64,000 nucleotides of DNA from Parcubacteria bacterium C7867-005 (GTDB lineage Bacteria; Patescibacteriota; Minisyncoccia; Phycocordibacterales; Zambryskibacteraceae). Under the pieces are notes generated by a model, which saw nothing but the letters and a program-made list of their open reading frames with translations, searched no databases and was not told the DNA's origin. A program made the translations under genes and the position numbers. The DNA is taken from the NCBI GenBank assembly GCA_001189165.1, contig LFCO01000001.1:10987-74986 (forward strand), read 5' to 3'. Positions within the stretch are counted from its first letter, which is position 1. Every line of letters starts with the position of its first letter. Of the stretch, positions 2,437-44,602 are shown piece after piece.

Positions 2437-4610
2437 TAGTTTTCAAATTTGGGCCAGGACTCAACCATCAACAAGGGCCTATCCTTGGGGTGTGGCATGT
2501 TCTGCCATATTTCTTCGGTCACAAATGGCATGAATGGATGGAGCATCTTTAGGGATGTGCTTAGTATGAAATACAACTTACGCTTCGTTTCCTCATTTGC
2601 TATGTCGCCCTTACTTTCCTCTATGATTTTATCTGCAAATGTATGCCACACATAATGGTAGATTCTCTCAGAGGCATTGTGGATTCTAAAGTTATCAAGT
2701 TCATTTGTTGCTGTAGAGAATTCTTTGTACATCTCCTGTATATCTTCATCTTGGACTTCTGGTGTTTCAAATGAACTGGGTTGATTCGAGAGCACGAATC
2801 GGGTTATGTTCCAAAGCTTGTTGGCAAAATTTTTATAGCCCCGTATCTTGTCTTTGGAGATACTACTGTCTGTGCCCGCAGCTGTCCCAGATATGAGTGC
2901 CATACGACCTGCGTCTGTGCCAAACTCTTTGGCGACATCTATGGGGTCTATGCCGTTTCCCAAGCTCTTTGACATCTTTTGACCCTTGGCATCTCTGACT
3001 GTGCCGTGTAGATAGACAGTGCTGAAGGGAATTTGGCCGAGAACATATCCAGACATGAGCACCATCCGCGCCACCCAGAAAAACAAAATTTCATAACCAG
3101 TCTCAAGCAGGTTTGTTGGGTGATAATCCAGGAGGTCCTTGGTTTTATCTGGCCAACCTAAAGTTGAGAACGTCCAAAGTGCTGAAGAGAACCATGTGTC
3201 CAGAGTATCTGGATCTTGCGTCCAACCATCTTTTTCCCAAGTCTCTGATGGGGGATTTGTATCTACATGAGTTTCTCCGTCTCTATACCATACGGGTATC
3301 CTATGGCCGTACCAGATTTGTCTTGAAATACACCAGTCTCTGAGGTTGTCTATCCAGTGAAAATAAGTTTTATCAAAGTAATCTGGGATTATTTTTATCT
3401 GACCCTGGGACACAGCTTTCTGCATTATTTCTTTTAGGGTTGTTTCGGTTCCTGACTTTATCCCATTTATTTCTGAATGGGGGAGAATGAATGGTTTGTT
3501 CACTGCTACGAACCACTGAGTCATGATCTGTGGTTCTATGATCCCCCCTGTTCTCTCTGCGGTGGCTATGTTGTGGGTATAGTCTTCTGTCTTTACCAAC
3601 AAGCCTTTGGCATCCAGTTTCTCTATGATTTTCTCCCTGGCATCTTTGATCTTCATCATGGCGAATTCACCCGCGATTGGTAGTAATTTGCCGTACTGAT
3701 CGATGATTTTCTCTCTGTCCAACTTGTGTGTTTCTGCGATATCAAAATCTATTTGTGAATGAGCAGGGGTTATGGTCATCACTCCGGTGCCGAATTCCAT
3801 ATCAATCCTCTCATCTTTGATCACCGTTGCTTCGATCGGTCCATTTATCCACTCAACCATCAGTTTTTGTCCGTGGGTATATTCCTTGAACCTACTGTCT
3901 TCTGGATGCATCACTACATACTTGTCTCCGAATTTTGTTTCTGGCCGGGCTGTCCCTATAGTGAATGGCCCATATTTGAGATAATAAAATTTGGTTTTTT
4001 CTTCTACATAGACAACCTCATCGTCTGCGATTGTTGTCTGGCCCTTGGTGTCCCAGTTGACCATCCTCTCTCCACGATAAATTAACCCATCCTCATACAT
4101 CTTCTTGAAGACCGTTTTAACTGCCAAGTTTCTTTTTTCATCTAAGGTAAAGGCTTCTCTGCCCCAGTCACAGCTTGCGCCCATCACTTTTATTTGGGAG
4201 ACGATAGTGTCGTGGCTTTGCTTTGCAAAACTGTCGATCCTTTTTAGGAGTTCTTCACGTCCGATATCGTGCCTGCTTTTCTTTTCTTCTTTTTGAATCT
4301 CTTTCTCGACTTTGGATTGGGTGGCTATGGCCGCATGATCAGTCCCTGGAAGCCACAGGGTGCGTTTGCCGAGCATTCGGTTATACCTTACGAAGATATC
4401 TTCTACGGTGAGCATTAGTGCGTGCCCCATATGTAAAACCCCAGTCACGTTTGGTGGAGGCATGATAACCGTGTAGGTTGGGGCATCCTCTCTTGTAAAC
4501 CCTGATTCTATGGCTTTATTGGGGTTGAAAAATCCACCTTCTTCCCACAGAGAATAGATCCTTGCTTCGGTTTCAGTCGGATTATATGGCTTAAGAAACC
4601 TCTCATTCAT
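2436..4610 (-). CDS. valS: valyl-tRNA synthetase (short form lacking C-terminal coiled coil)
   Basis: Class I aaRS motifs PPPNVTGVLHMGHAL (HIGH variant typical of ValRS) and KMSKSLGNGIDP. Confidence 0.8.
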   Translation of the reverse strand: MNERFLKPYNPTETEARIYSLWEEGGFFNPNKAIESGFTREDAPTYTVIMPPPNVTGVLHMGHALMLTVEDIFVRYNRMLGKRTLWLPGTDHAAIATQSKVEKEIQKEEKKSRHDIGREELLKRIDSFAKQSHDTIVSQIKVMGASCDWGREAFTLDEKRNLAVKTVFKKMYEDGLIYRGERMVNWDTKGQTTIADDEVVYVEEKTKFYYLKYGPFTIGTARPETKFGDKYVVMHPEDSRFKEYTHGQKLMVEWINGPIEATVIKDERIDMEFGTGVMTITPAHSQIDFDIAETHKLDREKIIDQYGKLLPIAGEFAMMKIKDAREKIIEKLDAKGLLVKTEDYTHNIATAERTGGIIEPQIMTQWFVAVNKPFILPHSEINGIKSGTETTLKEIMQKAVSQGQIKIIPDYFDKTYFHWIDNLRDWCISRQIWYGHRIPVWYRDGETHVDTNPPSETWEKDGWTQDPDTLDTWFSSALWTFSTLGWPDKTKDLLDYHPTNLLETGYEILFFWVARMVLMSGYVLGQIPFSTVYLHGTVRDAKGQKMSKSLGNGIDPIDVAKEFGTDAGRMALISGTAAGTDSSISKDKIRGYKNFANKLWNITRFVLSNQPSSFETPEVQDEDIQEMYKEFSTATNELDNFRIHNASERIYHYVWHTFADKIIEESKGDIANEETKRKLYFILSTSLKMLHPFMPFVTEEIWQNMPHPKDRPLLMVESWPKFEN

Positions 4611-19198: not shown

Positions 19199-19729
19199 AT
19201 GTATATTGTTGTAGGTTTAGGAAACCCAGGAGAAGAATACAAAGAGACACGTCACAATACAGGACGTATGGTGATGGATTTTCTTACAAAAAAAGACATT
19301 TTGAACACGAAATTTGTTCATCTGGATACTTTTATGAACAAGTCCGGAGCCGGAGTAGCCAAAGTAGTCAAATCCAAAAAATCTGCAGAAAAACTGGTGG
19401 TTGTTTATGACGATTTGGATTTACCTATCGGTACCATGAAAGTTTCTTATGATCGGAGTTCGGGTGGTCACCGCGGAGTAGAGTCCATCATAAGGGCTCT
19501 AAAGACACAAGCCTTCATCCGCATCAGGGTTGGTATTTCTCCAAGTACCCCATCAGGTAAGCTTAAAAAACCACAGGGTGAAAAAGATGTTGAGAAGTTT
19601 ATCATGGGCAAGTTTGGCCCCAAAGAAAAAGAAATGCTAAAAAAGGTTTTTAAGCACATACCAGAGACACTAGAGGCGCTCGCCACAGACGGTCTACAGA
19701 GGGCGATGACAGTCGGTAATACCAAATAA
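19199..19729 (+). CDS. pth: peptidyl-tRNA hydrolase
   Basis: MYIVVGLGNPGEEYKETRHNTG and DDLDLPIGTMKV signatures. Confidence 0.9.
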   Translation: MYIVVGLGNPGEEYKETRHNTGRMVMDFLTKKDILNTKFVHLDTFMNKSGAGVAKVVKSKKSAEKLVVVYDDLDLPIGTMKVSYDRSSGGHRGVESIIRALKTQAFIRIRVGISPSTPSGKLKKPQGEKDVEKFIMGKFGPKEKEMLKKVFKHIPETLEALATDGLQRAMTVGNTK

Positions 19730-19765
19730 CAAAAACCCCGAGGGTCGCTCGGGGTTTTTGTTATT

Positions 19766-21013
19766 TTATTTCTTTTCTTTGTCGATGAACGAGAGTGCCA
19801 TCTTCTGTTCTTTTGGATCGAAGAGACTTATCTTGAAGCTATAGGTTTTGCCCATCTCCAACTTTTCGCGGAGCTTGTCTTCACCACCGAATTCACTAAC
19901 ATGGACGAGTCCAGCGACTCCTTCTTCTATAGAAGCCAATGCACCGTGTTTATTGAATTTGATGATCACTCCTTCGACTACATCATCTTTCTTATATTTC
20001 TTCTCTGCTTCTTTCCAAGGATTTTCCTTGAGTGCTTTGATAGAGAGTGAGATCTTGTCATCCTTTATCTCTATGATCTTGACCTTGACCTTTTCGCCGA
20101 TTTTGAACATCGCTTTTGGATTTTCTACTAGACCCCAGTCTATTTCAGAAATATGTACCAGTCCTTCGAGTCCTTCTTCGAGCTTCACGAAGACACCAAA
20201 GTCTACGAGGCCAGTGACTTCACCCTTGAGCTCGTCTCCGAGAGTGTAGTGAGCGATGATGGATTCTTTGTTTTTATTTTCTGGAGATTTCTCAGAGAAG
20301 ATGAGTTTACCTTCTTTTGGATTCGCACCGATGATAGTGACAGAAAGTTTTGTGCCGATAAGCTTCTTCAGTTCTTCGAGGATTTTATCTTTATCTCCAT
20401 CAGATACGCGTGGATAGTGTTCAGGTTTGAGTTGTGATGCGGGGAGGAACCCAGAGAGACCTTGCCAGTTTATGATAAGCCCACCCTTGTTTGCTTCTGT
20501 GATAGGGAGTTCATAAACACGCTTCTCGTTGATAGCTGTTTCTGCTTCGCTCCATATAAGCGCTTGTCTAGCTTCTTTGAGAGAGATTTCTATATAACCT
20601 TCTTTACCTCCGATACCCACAACCTTACCAGCAACAGTGTCGCCGATGTTGATCTTCTTTATGATATCGCGGGCATTTATAAACTCGCGTCCGTAGATGA
20701 TACCAGTACCGAATGGGTGGAGGTCTATATATACAGCACCTTTGTCTATGTTGATCACCGGACCTTCTATGACGTCATCTATAGAAGGGGGAGTAGCAGT
20801 CGCCGAGACGATCTGACCCATGAGCGAAGTGTCTTCGACCACAGGAACTTTCTCTTTCTTTATTTTTTCTTTTTTCAAATTATTGTGGCCAACCGCGGTC
20901 CTTGGCTCTCTCGAGTGTTTGCCTAGAGACAAGGGGATAACGAAGTTGGGGACTAATAAACTACCTCTGTAGTTGGACATCAAAATAGCAGAAAAACCAA
21001 ATTTTGTAAACAA
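19766..21013 (-). CDS. rpsA: 30S ribosomal protein S1 (short, 4 S1 domains)
   Basis: Repeated S1 OB-fold motifs (GDTVAGKVVGI, GEVTGLVDFGVFVKL, GVIIKFNKHGALASI); real start possibly internal. Confidence 0.8.
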   Translation of the reverse strand: MFTKFGFSAILMSNYRGSLLVPNFVIPLSLGKHSREPRTAVGHNNLKKEKIKKEKVPVVEDTSLMGQIVSATATPPSIDDVIEGPVINIDKGAVYIDLHPFGTGIIYGREFINARDIIKKINIGDTVAGKVVGIGGKEGYIEISLKEARQALIWSEAETAINEKRVYELPITEANKGGLIINWQGLSGFLPASQLKPEHYPRVSDGDKDKILEELKKLIGTKLSVTIIGANPKEGKLIFSEKSPENKNKESIIAHYTLGDELKGEVTGLVDFGVFVKLEEGLEGLVHISEIDWGLVENPKAMFKIGEKVKVKIIEIKDDKISLSIKALKENPWKEAEKKYKKDDVVEGVIIKFNKHGALASIEEGVAGLVHVSEFGGEDKLREKLEMGKTYSFKISLFDPKEQKMALSFIDKEKK

Positions 21014-21473
21014 AAAGGCAGTCCGAGTTGGACTGCATCGCTTTGGTAAGTGCTATTGCTTGAGGGTAACCGGCAGTCCCGACTGGCGTAGTCGTCCGGG
21101 ACTGCCGGCCCCATTTGGTGGCATCTCGAGAAGTGTCTTAGCCCAGTTTTCGACCGGGACATTAACACTTACGCGTGCGAGAAGGTGGCTTTGGTTACCA
21201 CGACCCCACCTATGCTTTACCTTCGGAGCATTCGTCGTCCTCCATGACGGTGGCTGGGCCTGGGCAACGATGCCGGTGGAGACCCATGTTCATGATGCGC
21301 GATTCGTTCGCGCGGGATCGGCCGCGGGCTTCGGACCGCGGCGACGTATAGCGGACTTGATACTCAGCAACAGCTTGTATATGTACTGCAAGGAGGGAAA
21401 ACTCACTCCCGAATATTCTGTCTTAATCATATCATACCCAAATCTTTTGTCAAGCGGTTTGGGTTTACCGCTT

Positions 21474-21508
21474 CCCCCCGTGTCAACCTGCCAGGTTGAC
21501 ACGGGGGG
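21474..21508. repeat. 35-bp perfect palindrome ccccccgtgtcaacctg-c-caggttgacacgggggg (copy 1)
   Basis: Arms exactly reverse-complementary; core gtgtcaacctgScaggttgacac shared with the copy at 42911-42947. Confidence 0.75.
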
Positions 21509-21543
21509 ATGAAGACAGCCCCCAAAGCGCGGGGCTTTGGGGG

Positions 21544-21819
21544 CTAGGGGTGGATCTCGACGCTGTCCTGGAGGAACTCGGGGTCGCTCTTGCAGAAGGG
21601 ATGATCCTTCGGTAGAGGGCACCCGAGTTGGACATCTTGCGGGGCGATGGGGGATATCAGACCCAATTCCTCGATCTCCTCTGGGGTCATGCTGCGGTAT
21701 CCTCTGGTCTCATCTGGCCATAGGCTTGGCATCTGTATAGCATCTGCAACCGCTGATGCTAGGACGAGAGCAACCAACACCATGAAAGCTTTCAGCGCCT
21801 TGCGTACTGAGATGGGCAC
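21544..21819 (-). CDS. GC-rich small secreted protein (signal peptide MVLVALVLASAVADA)
   Basis: 91 aa; GC-rich; GC hairpin cccccaaagcgcggggctttggggg immediately downstream. Confidence 0.4.
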   Translation of the reverse strand: MPISVRKALKAFMVLVALVLASAVADAIQMPSLWPDETRGYRSMTPEEIEELGLISPIAPQDVQLGCPLPKDHPFCKSDPEFLQDSVEIHP

Positions 21820-42571: not shown

Positions 42572-43459
42572 TTAGAGGGCTATCCTAACATATTTCTCTA
42601 TTTCTTTGGATGCCCCAGATTCAAACCATTTTATGGACTTGTTCCTTTTAAACCAAGTCATTTGGCGTTTTGAATACTGTTTTATTTCTGTATAGAGTCT
42701 CTCTCTCATCTCCTGTCTGTCGATCTTATCCTGGAGAAACATAGCGATATATTTATATTCTAGTCCTAGGCTCTGCATACGCTTCCAAGTAAGTCCACGA
42801 TCATGCAACCTCTTACCCTCCTTAATCATCGGTTCCATGCGTTTGAGCAATCGTCTGTATATTTTTTCTTCAAGGTCTTTTTGCTCGGGTCTGATACCGA
42901 TGAATACGGTCTCCCACTGTGTCAACCTGGCAGGTTGACACAGTGGGACATGACCCAAGGCAGATACTATTTCAAGTGCTCGGATTAGGCGAACCTTGTT
43001 TTTAGAATCTATAGATTTCGCTCGAACAGGATCTTTCTTTTGAAGCATCATATACAACTCGTGAGCATCTTTTCTCTCCAGTCTTTCCCTCAGCACTTTA
43101 TTTGGTGGGACTTCAGGTAGATTAGTTTCTCCTATGAGGATGTCTATGTAAAACCCCGTACCACCGACGATAATCGGTGTTTTATTCCTTTCGAGGATAT
43201 CTATCAATATTTTTTCTCCGAGCACCTTGTAGTCAGAAGCAGAGAATGATTTCTTTGGATCTGCCACATCAAGCATGTGGTGAGGTATGTTGAGCATCTC
43301 TTTCTTGGTGATTTTTCCTGCACCTATGTTCAAACCTTTATAGACCTGTCTAGAATCAGCAGAAATAATCTCGCCATTAAATTTCTTGGCGAGGGAAACC
43401 GCAAGGGAACTTTTGCCCGATGCTGTTGGGCCGACTATGATTAAAACCTTGGGCTTCAT
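42572..43459 (-). CDS. miaA: tRNA dimethylallyltransferase
   Basis: VLIIVGPTASGKSSLAVSLA P-loop, ISADSRQVYKGLNIGAGK. Confidence 0.9.
   Translation of the reverse strand: MKPKVLIIVGPTASGKSSLAVSLAKKFNGEIISADSRQVYKGLNIGAGKITKKEMLNIPHHMLDVADPKKSFSASDYKVLGEKILIDILERNKTPIIVGGTGFYIDILIGETNLPEVPPNKVLRERLERKDAHELYMMLQKKDPVRAKSIDSKNKVRLIRALEIVSALGHVPLCQPARLTQWETVFIGIRPEQKDLEEKIYRRLLKRMEPMIKEGKRLHDRGLTWKRMQSLGLEYKYIAMFLQDKIDRQEMRERLYTEIKQYSKRQMTWFKRNKSIKWFESGASKEIEKYVRIAL
42911..42947. repeat. 37-bp perfect palindrome tcccactgtgtcaacctg-g-caggttgacacagtggga inside miaA (copy 2, encodes ...PLCQPARLTQWE...)
   Basis: Exact inverted arms; 23-bp core identical to the 21474-21508 copy except for the complementary centre base (the same element in the opposite orientation). 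Confidence 0.75.
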
Positions 43460-43588: not shown

Positions 43589-44602
43589 ATGTCACAGTTT
43601 TATAACGACTCCATTTTCTGGATAGAGGTAGAGAAGATTCACCCAAACCCATATCAACCAAGAAAAGAATTTGATCAGGCGCATCTACAGAGTTTAGCCG
43701 ATTCTATGCGCCAGTATGGGGTTTTGCAGGCTTTGGTGGTTACTAGGACTGAAGTAGAGAAGCCGGATGGAGGCCTCGCTGTCGAATACGAACTCATCGC
43801 CGGAGAGCGTCGTTTACGTGCTGCTAAGCTTGCTGGCCTTACGCAAGTGCCAGTGCTTATTCGTACTGGAGCAGAAAACGATTTGACCAAACTTGAATTA
43901 GCGATTATCGAAAATATTCAGCGTGAGGATTTGAATCCAGTCGATAGGGCCAAAGCATTTGACCGACTCGCCAAAGAGTTTGGATTCAAGCATGCAGAAA
44001 TTGCCAAGAAAGTCGGCAAGAGTAGAGAGTACGTTTCTAATACCATGAGGTTGCTGATGCTCCCAGATCACATCCTTCAAGCACTTGCAGAAGGCAAAAT
44101 CACCGAAGGTCACACTCGTCCACTGATGATGCTCACAGATCGTAAAGAAGAGCAGGAAACGTTGTTTAAAGAAATTGTTTACAAAAAACTGAACGTACGT
44201 GAAGCAGAAGGCATTGCCAGGAGGATTGCCTTTGAGCGAGCAAGAAAATTAGTAGACCCAGAGTTGATAGATATAGAGGAAAAGCTCAAAGAATCATTAG
44301 GCACGAGGGTGCGTATAGAAAAGAAAGAGGAGGGAGGCAAGATCACTATAGACTTCTTTTCAAACGAAGATTTGCGTACGCTCTTTGACATACTGACCGC
44401 CCAAAAAGGGAATAAAGACGGGGATGCGATGCTCAAGAGATATATCGCCACCAAAGAAGCCGAAGGCTTGTCCGTAGAAAAAGCAGAACCACTGACTGTA
44501 GAAGAAAAACTAGAGCTCGATGACGAAGGCGATAAAGTGATGGAAAAACCCTTGGATGATGACGAAGAAGATCTCTATTCGATAAAAGATTTTACTGTTT
44601 AG
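43589..44602 (+). CDS. parB: ParB/Spo0J-family partition protein with a C-terminal acidic extension
   Basis: ParB box ELIAGERRLRAAKLAGLTQVPVLIR, HTH region, KITIDFFSNEDLRTL dimerisation-like C-terminus. Confidence 0.8.
   Translation: MSQFYNDSIFWIEVEKIHPNPYQPRKEFDQAHLQSLADSMRQYGVLQALVVTRTEVEKPDGGLAVEYELIAGERRLRAAKLAGLTQVPVLIRTGAENDLTKLELAIIENIQREDLNPVDRAKAFDRLAKEFGFKHAEIAKKVGKSREYVSNTMRLLMLPDHILQALAEGKITEGHTRPLMMLTDRKEEQETLFKEIVYKKLNVREAEGIARRIAFERARKLVDPELIDIEEKLKESLGTRVRIEKKEEGGKITIDFFSNEDLRTLFDILTAQKGNKDGDAMLKRYIATKEAEGLSVEKAEPLTVEEKLELDDEGDKVMEKPLDDDEEDLYSIKDFTV

Follow-up and report, generated by a model that had tools for sequence, protein, structure and literature searches.

Dispersed perfect palindromes in a Parcubacteria genome as copies of a likely, atypical REP/RAYT-type system

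A 64,000-nucleotide stretch of the genome of Parcubacteria bacterium C7867-005 (here called the window) contains two perfect 37-bp palindromes, one between genes and the other within miaA. It is likely that these palindromes are non-autonomous hairpin copies resembling the repetitive extragenic palindromic (REP) sequences, and that their cognate enzyme is a single-copy, vertically inherited Y1 HUH (histidine-hydrophobic-histidine) transposase of the REP-associated tyrosine transposase (RAYT)/IS200 type, encoded elsewhere in the genome. A preliminary description of this DNA, made from the sequence alone, had listed a REP-like repeat with a cognate IS200/IS605-type TnpA among several candidates. 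This candidate is now supported by a palindrome-flanked transposase gene, by family and fold matches of its product, and by matching palindrome subtypes within one genome; the other candidates (a dif-like site, a restriction-modification target and a nucleoid-protein site) gained no support. The system is, in function and architecture, a REPtron, that is, a RAYT with flanking and dispersed REPs. Our verdict is that it represents an atypical REP/RAYT variant, with perfect untagged hairpins, a low copy number and in-frame copies in housekeeping genes.

The palindromes and their hairpin signature

Both palindromes are real, each with two perfect 18-bp arms around a single centre base (Table 1). 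Copy 1 reads TCCCCCCGTGTCAACCTG-c-CAGGTTGACACGGGGGGA and copy 2 reads TCCCACTGTGTCAACCTG-g-CAGGTTGACACAGTGGGA. Their positions required correction: copy 1 had been placed at 21474-21508, which omits the outer T/A pair, and copy 2 at 42911-42947, which is shifted by one base. The 23-bp cores (GTGTCAACCTG-S-CAGGTTGACAC) differ in the centre base only, as had been reported, and the 21-bp core within them (TGTCAACCTG-S-CAGGTTGACA) carries TTGACA on both strands. At up to three mismatches the core matches the 64-kb window at these two copies only, and none of 100 dinucleotide-preserving shuffles of the window contained any match, which bears out the earlier estimate of a negligible chance occurrence; a chance origin of both palindromes is excluded. 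Beyond the core, the outer arms are CCCCCCG/CGGGGGG in copy 1 and CCCACTG/CAGTGGG in copy 2, and each difference between the two copies is mirrored in the opposite arm. Folded as single-stranded DNA, each copy gives a 17-bp stem closed by a 3-nt loop (approximately -22 kcal/mol, z approximately -7).

Table 1. Coordinates of the palindromes, their host genes and the decayed transposase units (positions are those of the window unless a locus is named)
Feature	Location	Strand	Remarks
Palindrome copy 1	21473-21509	none	18+1+18 bp, perfect, centre C; intergenic
Palindrome copy 2	42912-42948	none	18+1+18 bp, perfect, centre G; in frame within miaA
21-bp core in copy 1	21481-21501		clade-wide conservation
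21-bp core in copy 2	42920-42940		clade-wide conservation
miaA (tRNA dimethylallyltransferase), host of copy 2	42572-43459	-	PF01715 at 2.6e-58
Remnant locus	L075 9804-10301		palindrome pair with decayed transposase
Remnant locus	L096 8222-8719		palindrome pair with decayed transposase
Remnant locus	L078 6332-6874		palindrome pair with decayed transposase
Intragenic copy, MiaA	window
Intragenic copy, asparagine synthase (asnB)	L004
Intragenic copy, ArgRS (argS)	L014
Intragenic copy, CysRS (cysS)	L041
Intragenic copy, P-type ATPase	L028
Intragenic copy, TypA (typA)	L044
Intragenic copy, reverse transcriptase	L022 3175		in frame; RVT_1 confirmed
Intragenic copy, probable reverse transcriptase	L030 2345		in frame; by similarity to the L022 protein
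Intragenic copy, 1,642-aa open reading frame	L033		function not assigned

The core is dispersed well beyond this genome. A scan for exact TGTCAACCTGSCAGGTTGACA, using one genome per species and with about one match expected by chance, found 45 loci, nearly all of them in metagenome-assembled genomes (MAGs) of Patescibacteria (Zambryskibacteria, Nomurabacteria, Kaiserbacteria and 'Parcubacteria'/Paceibacterota), with 1-8 exact cores per MAG. Metagenome contigs, scanned with the 23-mer, added 46 further loci. These data bear out the proposal of a dispersed palindromic element. A phage origin is ruled out by the scan of viral contigs, which gave 0 matches to the core.

The outer arms of the collected copies vary, and they vary in a paired manner. 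Among 86 distinct copies, in which the invariance of the ten inner pairs is imposed by the search pattern, arm position 11 is paired in 97% (GC 53, AU 15, UA 14, CG 1) and arm position 12 in 90% (CG 32, GC 30, UA 10 and five others), and pairing falls toward background by about position 18. The covariation score of the outer arms is 0.256, against 0.093 in shuffles (0/500 as high) and 0.06-0.12 with slid partners. Degenerate copies include the compensatory pair CGTCAA...TTGACG. Judged from these sequences, variable but complementary arms would suit a stem that is recognised as a hairpin or cruciform better than they would suit an invariant protein site on duplex DNA. When the copies were oriented by the centre base, no asymmetric tag (GTAG or CGTC) or flank motif was conserved within 30 nt on either side; CGTC occurs only as a paired stem variant. 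Similarly, no conserved cleavage or target motif was found outside the arms, nor any flank asymmetry relative to the centre base.

Several observations accompany these scans. Matches outside Patescibacteria lie in Rhabdonatronobacter sediminivivens (L040) and in an Anaerolineae MAG (L009). In L040, a 9.1-kb contig with a coverage of 371 that is probably a plasmid, several TGTCAACCTG half-sites, some direct and some inverted, are arrayed about a single full palindrome (positions ~950-1050), an arrangement that looks iteron-like or operator-like. In L009, a palindrome with 19-bp arms lies at 3457, upstream of a long open reading frame (ORF) that resembles a MocR-like regulator by eye only. In the sequence fetched for these two loci no RAYT-like gene was seen, and their palindromes may belong to unrelated systems. 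In L013 (~7260), L014 (~150), L027 (~3775) and L032 (~5190), arm tandem duplications of 13-14 nt (e.g., AAGGTGTCAACCTG twice) stand directly beside a full palindrome, which points to slippage at the hairpin or to its repeated processing. Several copies lie at a contig end or close to one.

Copy 1 is located in a GC-rich stretch upstream of rpsA (19766-21013, minus strand), between that gene and a small GC-rich ORF (21544-21819, minus strand). Its similarity to other loci is limited to the palindrome (at most 48 nt by blastn against all loci), and a longer miniature inverted-repeat transposable element (MITE) around copy 1 is ruled out, as the similarity to all loci ends there. Rfam searches around copy 1, at gathering and E<=10 thresholds, returned spurious miRNA-like hairpin matches only. 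Outside the two palindromes, the half-site GTCAACCTG is not enriched above chance in the window.

The palindrome-flanked transposase family and its member in the source genome

Wherever both ends are in view, two palindromes spaced 690-696 bp apart enclose an ORF of approximately 221 aa. This ORF adjoins the palindrome at 11 of the 45 genome loci and, independently, at 11 of the 46 metagenome loci (tblastn). It is flanked on both sides at genome loci L010, L035, L026, L012, L016, L025, L029, L045 and L050, as well as at metagenome loci L064, L069, L071, L074, L079 and L092. The 5' palindrome lies 25-32 nt upstream of the start codon, and 15-18 nt separate its TTGACA from a downstream hexamer rich in A/T (source genome: TTGACA-N17-TAGAAT); by sequence, the 5' copy probably supplies the -35 box of the transposase promoter. 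The 3' palindrome overlaps the stop, and one frame of the core, VNL(A/P)G-TGA, gives the transposase its own stop codon. Clusters of palindromes were seen only beside the transposase (L045 and L016), the other units being single hairpins. Pairs spaced 497-542 bp apart enclose shortened remnants of the ORF (matches of 71-144 aa; Table 1); at these loci the transposase gene decays and the flanking hairpins are intact.

Two motifs are invariant in the encoded proteins, NH[FY]H[LI]L (HUH) and Y-I-x-x-N(P), the latter of which we take to be the counterpart of the YIxxNP tyrosine motif of RAYTs such as E. coli RayT. All ten members searched match the NCBIfam family REP_Tyr_transpos (NF047646, REP-associated tyrosine transposase; best 1.6e-10) and Pfam Y1_Tnp (PF01797; best 5.9e-7), and a profile comparison with the PDB retrieves the TnpA of ISDra2 at an E-value of 7e-4. 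An AlphaFold model of the transposase (predicted local distance difference test, pLDDT, 78; predicted template modeling score, pTM, 0.80) was compared with the PDB by Foldseek, in which the top match was 4ER8, the E. coli RAYT with its REP hairpin (probability 0.99), followed by the TnpA proteins of IS608 and ISDra2. These matches are weak but consistent, and suggest that the ORF encodes a Y1 HUH tyrosine transposase with the TnpA/RAYT fold. The family comprises at least 7,287 matches, among which there may be other Y1 transposases; the best matches among those listed are mostly unnamed or "hypothetical". Across the clade the enzymes are only 45-50% identical, yet the core is conserved. One transposase locus per genome was seen among the loci retrieved, and its context is conserved: four genomes share the order smc-RAYT-rnr, and in several others, the source genome among them, efp or recA is found nearby.

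The link between the window and this family comes from a single assembly, GCA_002396705.1, which holds both MiaA (P0001) and a transposase of the family (P0220). P0220 is encoded on contig DGYO01000002.1 (locus L050), and the window belongs to contig DGYO01000004.1 (Parcubacteria bacterium C7867-005). The 5' flank palindrome of P0220 (L050 position 9949), ttCCCCCG-core-CGGGGGcc, has the outer-arm type of window copy 1, and the 3' flank palindrome (L050 position 10629), ccaACTG-core-CAGTGGGGA, has that of the miaA copy and overlaps the C-terminus of P0220 (...STWQVDTVGNGN-stop). By their outer arms, the window copies correspond to the two subtypes that flank the resident transposase gene, and they are not simply one element in opposite orientations, as had been proposed. 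The centre base G/C, the sole mark of orientation, is split approximately 50/50 among the copies. Another palindrome lies 2.2 kb downstream of P0220, and the genome thus holds at least three copies in addition to those of the window, in agreement with a dispersed element and not with two copies genome-wide. The window itself contains neither a transposase nor a restriction-modification gene, for which the preliminary description had suggested mapping the neighbouring genes, and tblastn of the window found no match for the transposase or its usual neighbours smc, rnr, recA and efp. With respect to the surroundings of P0220, a gene for an IS1595-family DDE transposase is located at L050 14213-15088, approximately 3.5 kb from the RAYT-like gene, and several small ORFs in this neighbourhood have no Pfam matches.

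By analogy with IS200/IS605 elements and E. coli TnpA-REP, the Y1 enzyme would bind the palindrome hairpin on single-stranded DNA, for instance on the lagging-strand template, and would then cut and rejoin DNA beside the hairpin. Such cutting and rejoining could seed new copies, keep existing copies matched to the resident enzyme, or both.

Intragenic copies and the weighing of alternative explanations

At least 8 of approximately 57 copies lie inside bona fide protein genes (Table 1). Two of the three frames of the core are open on both strands (CQPxRLT; STW/CQVD), and therefore copies can survive in frame within protein loops. In MiaA, copy 2 encodes PLCQPARLTQWE, which falls in a hypervariable surface loop following the conserved RALEI(V/I) helix. 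This loop is 20 aa long, as compared with 18-19 aa in most of 120 orthologues, and is shorter than that of Bacillus MiaA. A [CR]QPx[RT][LS]T peptide is kept at this site in approximately 27 of the 120 orthologues, at 60-66% identity, and in the DNA of four of these the palindrome is recognisable at the identical codons in a decayed state, with 1-4 mismatches in the core. These decayed palindromes indicate, at the level of aligned sequences, that the miaA copy is old and positionally conserved. The possibility that the MiaA segment is an in-frame insertion, raised in the preliminary description, was not upheld: the orthologue alignments show a loop gain of at most 1-2 aa, which rules out a simple in-frame insertion. 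Despite its age, the miaA copy is still perfect here and of the 3' flank subtype of the resident gene; repeated refreshment by the enzyme, symmetrisation of the hairpin arms or selection on the stem may account for this state. In TypA, the loop bearing the palindrome has 29 positions, against a canonical 26. At L022 and L030, the repeat is nested in a retroelement-like gene.

A number of findings weigh against a REP/RAYT-type system. No transposition event was observed, and no pair of filled and empty sites was found. The copy number is low in comparison with classical REPs, with two copies in 64 kb, and the hairpins are perfect and lack the tag, an unpaired GTAG or CGTC, that described REPs carry. 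All scores to NF047646 and PF01797 fall under the curated cut-offs, the TM-scores of the structural matches are modest (0.38-0.49; 0.38/0.49 for 4ER8), and binding and cleavage of the hairpin by this protein family are predicted by analogy. Furthermore, the miaA copy holds its position across orthologues of only 60-66% identity and adds no more than 1-2 aa, and the TypA copy adds only 3 aa, a pattern that looks like stasis or overwriting as opposed to simple insertion.

On a further reading, which we regard as unlikely, the Y1 protein would have been domesticated, with the palindromes being maintained chromosomal sites and not selfish passengers. The enzyme would then re-symmetrise and re-type existing hairpins through hairpin-templated conversion of the arms, with no net insertion. 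Arm conversion of this kind would explain the perfect 37 bp of the old miaA copy, its flank subtype, and the class-wide invariant core. The host function could be, for example, replication-coupled DNA processing, chromosome organisation or the supply of a portable -35 box.

We consider it improbable that the unit of approximately 720 bp (palindrome-transposase-palindrome) is an autonomous IS200-like insertion sequence (IS), with the solitary palindromes being scars or single ends of excised or decayed copies. Its size is indeed that of IS200 (approximately 0.7 kb), it encodes a Y1 transposase with the HUH fold and motifs of IS608 and ISDra2, and the hairpins at both ends of the gene are likely recognition elements, as in the IS200/IS605 family and its derivatives among palindrome-associated transposable elements (PATEs) and MITEs. 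The palindrome-flanked remnants in L075, L078 and L096, and the IS1595 transposase near the RAYT-like gene in L050, also speak for this explanation. However, the one transposase locus seen per genome is syntenic (smc-RAYT-rnr) in four genomes, solitary palindromes outnumber transposase loci by about 4:1, and the similarity around the solitary copies stops at the palindrome, without transposase remnants. Several of these lie within housekeeping genes that are intact and could not have hosted an IS of 700 bp. In IS200/IS605 elements, moreover, the subterminal hairpins are imperfect and differ between the two ends, guide and cleavage tetranucleotides accompany them, and it is the entire IS that moves and is present in many copies. 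In the present system, the same perfect palindrome is found at both ends, a single syntenic locus of the gene was seen per genome, and dispersal is limited to the hairpin. IS200/IS605 elements insert 3' of a specific tetra- or pentanucleotide, and no target motif of this type is conserved in the flanks of the solitary copies.

Quite improbable, in our estimation, is the explanation that the palindrome is a double-stranded site for a dimeric host protein (a lineage-specific, parS-like centromere for the adjacent ParB, the operator of a global regulator or a bidirectional -35 promoter module), to which the transposase link would be secondary. The parS site is a 16-bp palindrome with the consensus TGTTNCACGTGNAACA that is bound by ParB. 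Like parS (and also the KorB operator OB and matS-type sites), the palindrome has a 21-bp core that is exactly conserved across a class-level clade, is present in few copies per genome, several of them on one contig or in regions syntenic with the window, and occurs within genes and near parB: copy 2 is 640 bp away from parB, and miaA and parB are again adjacent in L047. The canonical parS (TGTTTCACGTGAAACA) has no match in the 64-kb window at up to three mismatches, TTGACA is found on both strands of the core, and half-site arrays accompany some copies. On the other hand, the palindrome sequence is unrelated to TGTTTCACGTGAAACA, and its arms vary in a compensating manner and exceed the length that a protein site requires. 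A duplex site leaves unexplained why the outer arms differ between copies of one genome yet are complementary within each, as well as the systematic bracketing of the Y1 gene and the matching of subtypes; moreover, neither strand shows a -10 box at promoter spacing from copy 1. The ParB of the window (43589-44602) is full-length (ParB_N, HTH_ParB and ParB_C) and has no adjacent parA.

It is very unlikely that the hairpins act mainly as RNA (as terminators, mRNA-stabilising stem-loops or RNase targets) and are conserved for that role. In favour of it are the high stability of the predicted stems, the position of many copies directly after an ORF or in the gap between convergent genes (e.g., L039 and L043, near rpsA and pth), and the view that described REPs act at the RNA level (PMC3733652). 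Against it, neither window copy is followed by a T-run, copies are found mid-ORF in essential genes where termination would be harmful, and neither the clade-wide invariant core nor the transposase link is explained.

Relation to known systems, other features of the window and significance

The REP/RAYT-type system that we favour has its closest known counterparts in the REPtrons of Proteobacteria, namely E. coli TnpA-REP (4ER8) and the REPIN-RAYT systems of Pseudomonas, REPINs being inverted REP doublets. Classical REPs are imperfect palindromes tagged by an unpaired GTAG (or CGTC) at one end, and they are extragenic, present in high copy number and often arranged as such doublets or as clusters. 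As in those systems, a short palindromic repeat is scattered in the chromosome and also flanks a syntenic, apparently single-copy Y1 HUH transposase gene, the subtype of the repeat fits the resident enzyme, some copies overlap the ends of ORFs and supply their stops, and 4ER8 is the best structural match of the protein. In contrast to them, the hairpins here are perfect, with an invariant inner stem of 10 bp and no unpaired GTAG or CGTC, and occur in low copy as single units, not as REPIN doublets or clusters of the bacterial interspersed mosaic element (BIME) type, and not strictly outside genes. Classical REPs are species- or genus-specific, whereas here one identical core spans a class-level clade; the protein of approximately 221 aa has an extra C-terminal helical region and scores below the curated RAYT/Y1_Tnp cut-offs; and the host has an ultra-small genome of the candidate phyla radiation (CPR). 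Intragenic REPs in some species, and REPs that supply stop codons, have already been described (PMC3733652).

The in-frame copies in housekeeping genes also recall the Rickettsia palindromic elements (RPE) and other intragenic REPs (e.g., those of Opitutus terrae). RPE-1, however, is 100-150 bp long and adds 30-50 aa, whereas the element described here is 23-37 bp long and adds 1-3 aa net. No dedicated transposase is known for RPE, unlike the present element with its cognate Y1 gene. Intragenic palindromic repeats have been associated with tolerated loops and vertical inheritance (PMC3733652).

The window contains two other long perfect palindromes, at 1154-1193 (20+20 bp, after tRNA-Phe) and at 19724-19766 (19+5+19 bp, in the gap between pth and rpsA). 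Both have A-run/T-run flanks and are unrelated in sequence to the REP-like copies; they look like ordinary bidirectional terminators. Between copy 1 and rpsA, the region 21010-21455 (minus strand) begins with a near-consensus promoter (TTGACA-16-TATGAT, 21453->21426), after which a stretch of approximately 400 nt has a GC content of 57-60%, as compared with a genome average of 43%, and a minimum free energy of -157 kcal/mol (z -3.6). This structured stretch ends just upstream of rpsA in a terminator-like hairpin with a T-run (21036-21018). Rfam gives no match to it even at E<=10, and syntenic loci show nothing similar; it is a candidate for an unannotated non-coding RNA or an rpsA leader. The ORF on the other side of copy 1 (21544-21819) encodes 91 aa with a signal-peptide-like N-terminus and no Pfam match, and its stop overlaps a hairpin with a 12-bp stem (21517-21545) beside copy 1. 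GC-rich islands (53-58% GC, in a genome of about 43%) are located at 11.0-12.0, 25.4-26.0, 30.1-32.4, 52.6-55.0 and 21.0-21.8 kb; except for one SPFH/Band 7 protein, their ORFs have no Pfam match, and they may have been horizontally acquired. Copy 1 and the third palindrome of L050 both lie within GC-rich stretches.

The genomes of CPR/Patescibacteria are among the smallest and most streamlined, and are thought to be poor in repetitive and mobile DNA. Full-text searches of the literature found no earlier description of RAYT/REP systems in this group; a RAYT has been noted in one Pacearchaeales archaeon (preprint). In these bacteria, a partnership of the REP/RAYT type seems to have lasted throughout a class-level clade while its 21-bp recognition core stayed unchanged, and its copies sit in essential genes such as miaA, argS, cysS, typA and asnB. 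The finding gives a name to a large protein family, whose best listed matches are mostly unnamed or hypothetical. If the REP/RAYT interpretation is true, the repeat would be of practical use as a marker in CPR metagenome assemblies, where it would also be likely to cause contig breaks, and would offer a simple, perfectly symmetric substrate for studying hairpin recognition by Y1 HUH enzymes. It would also extend to a very different lineage the idea of REPIN-RAYT systems as long-lived, vertically inherited replicators.

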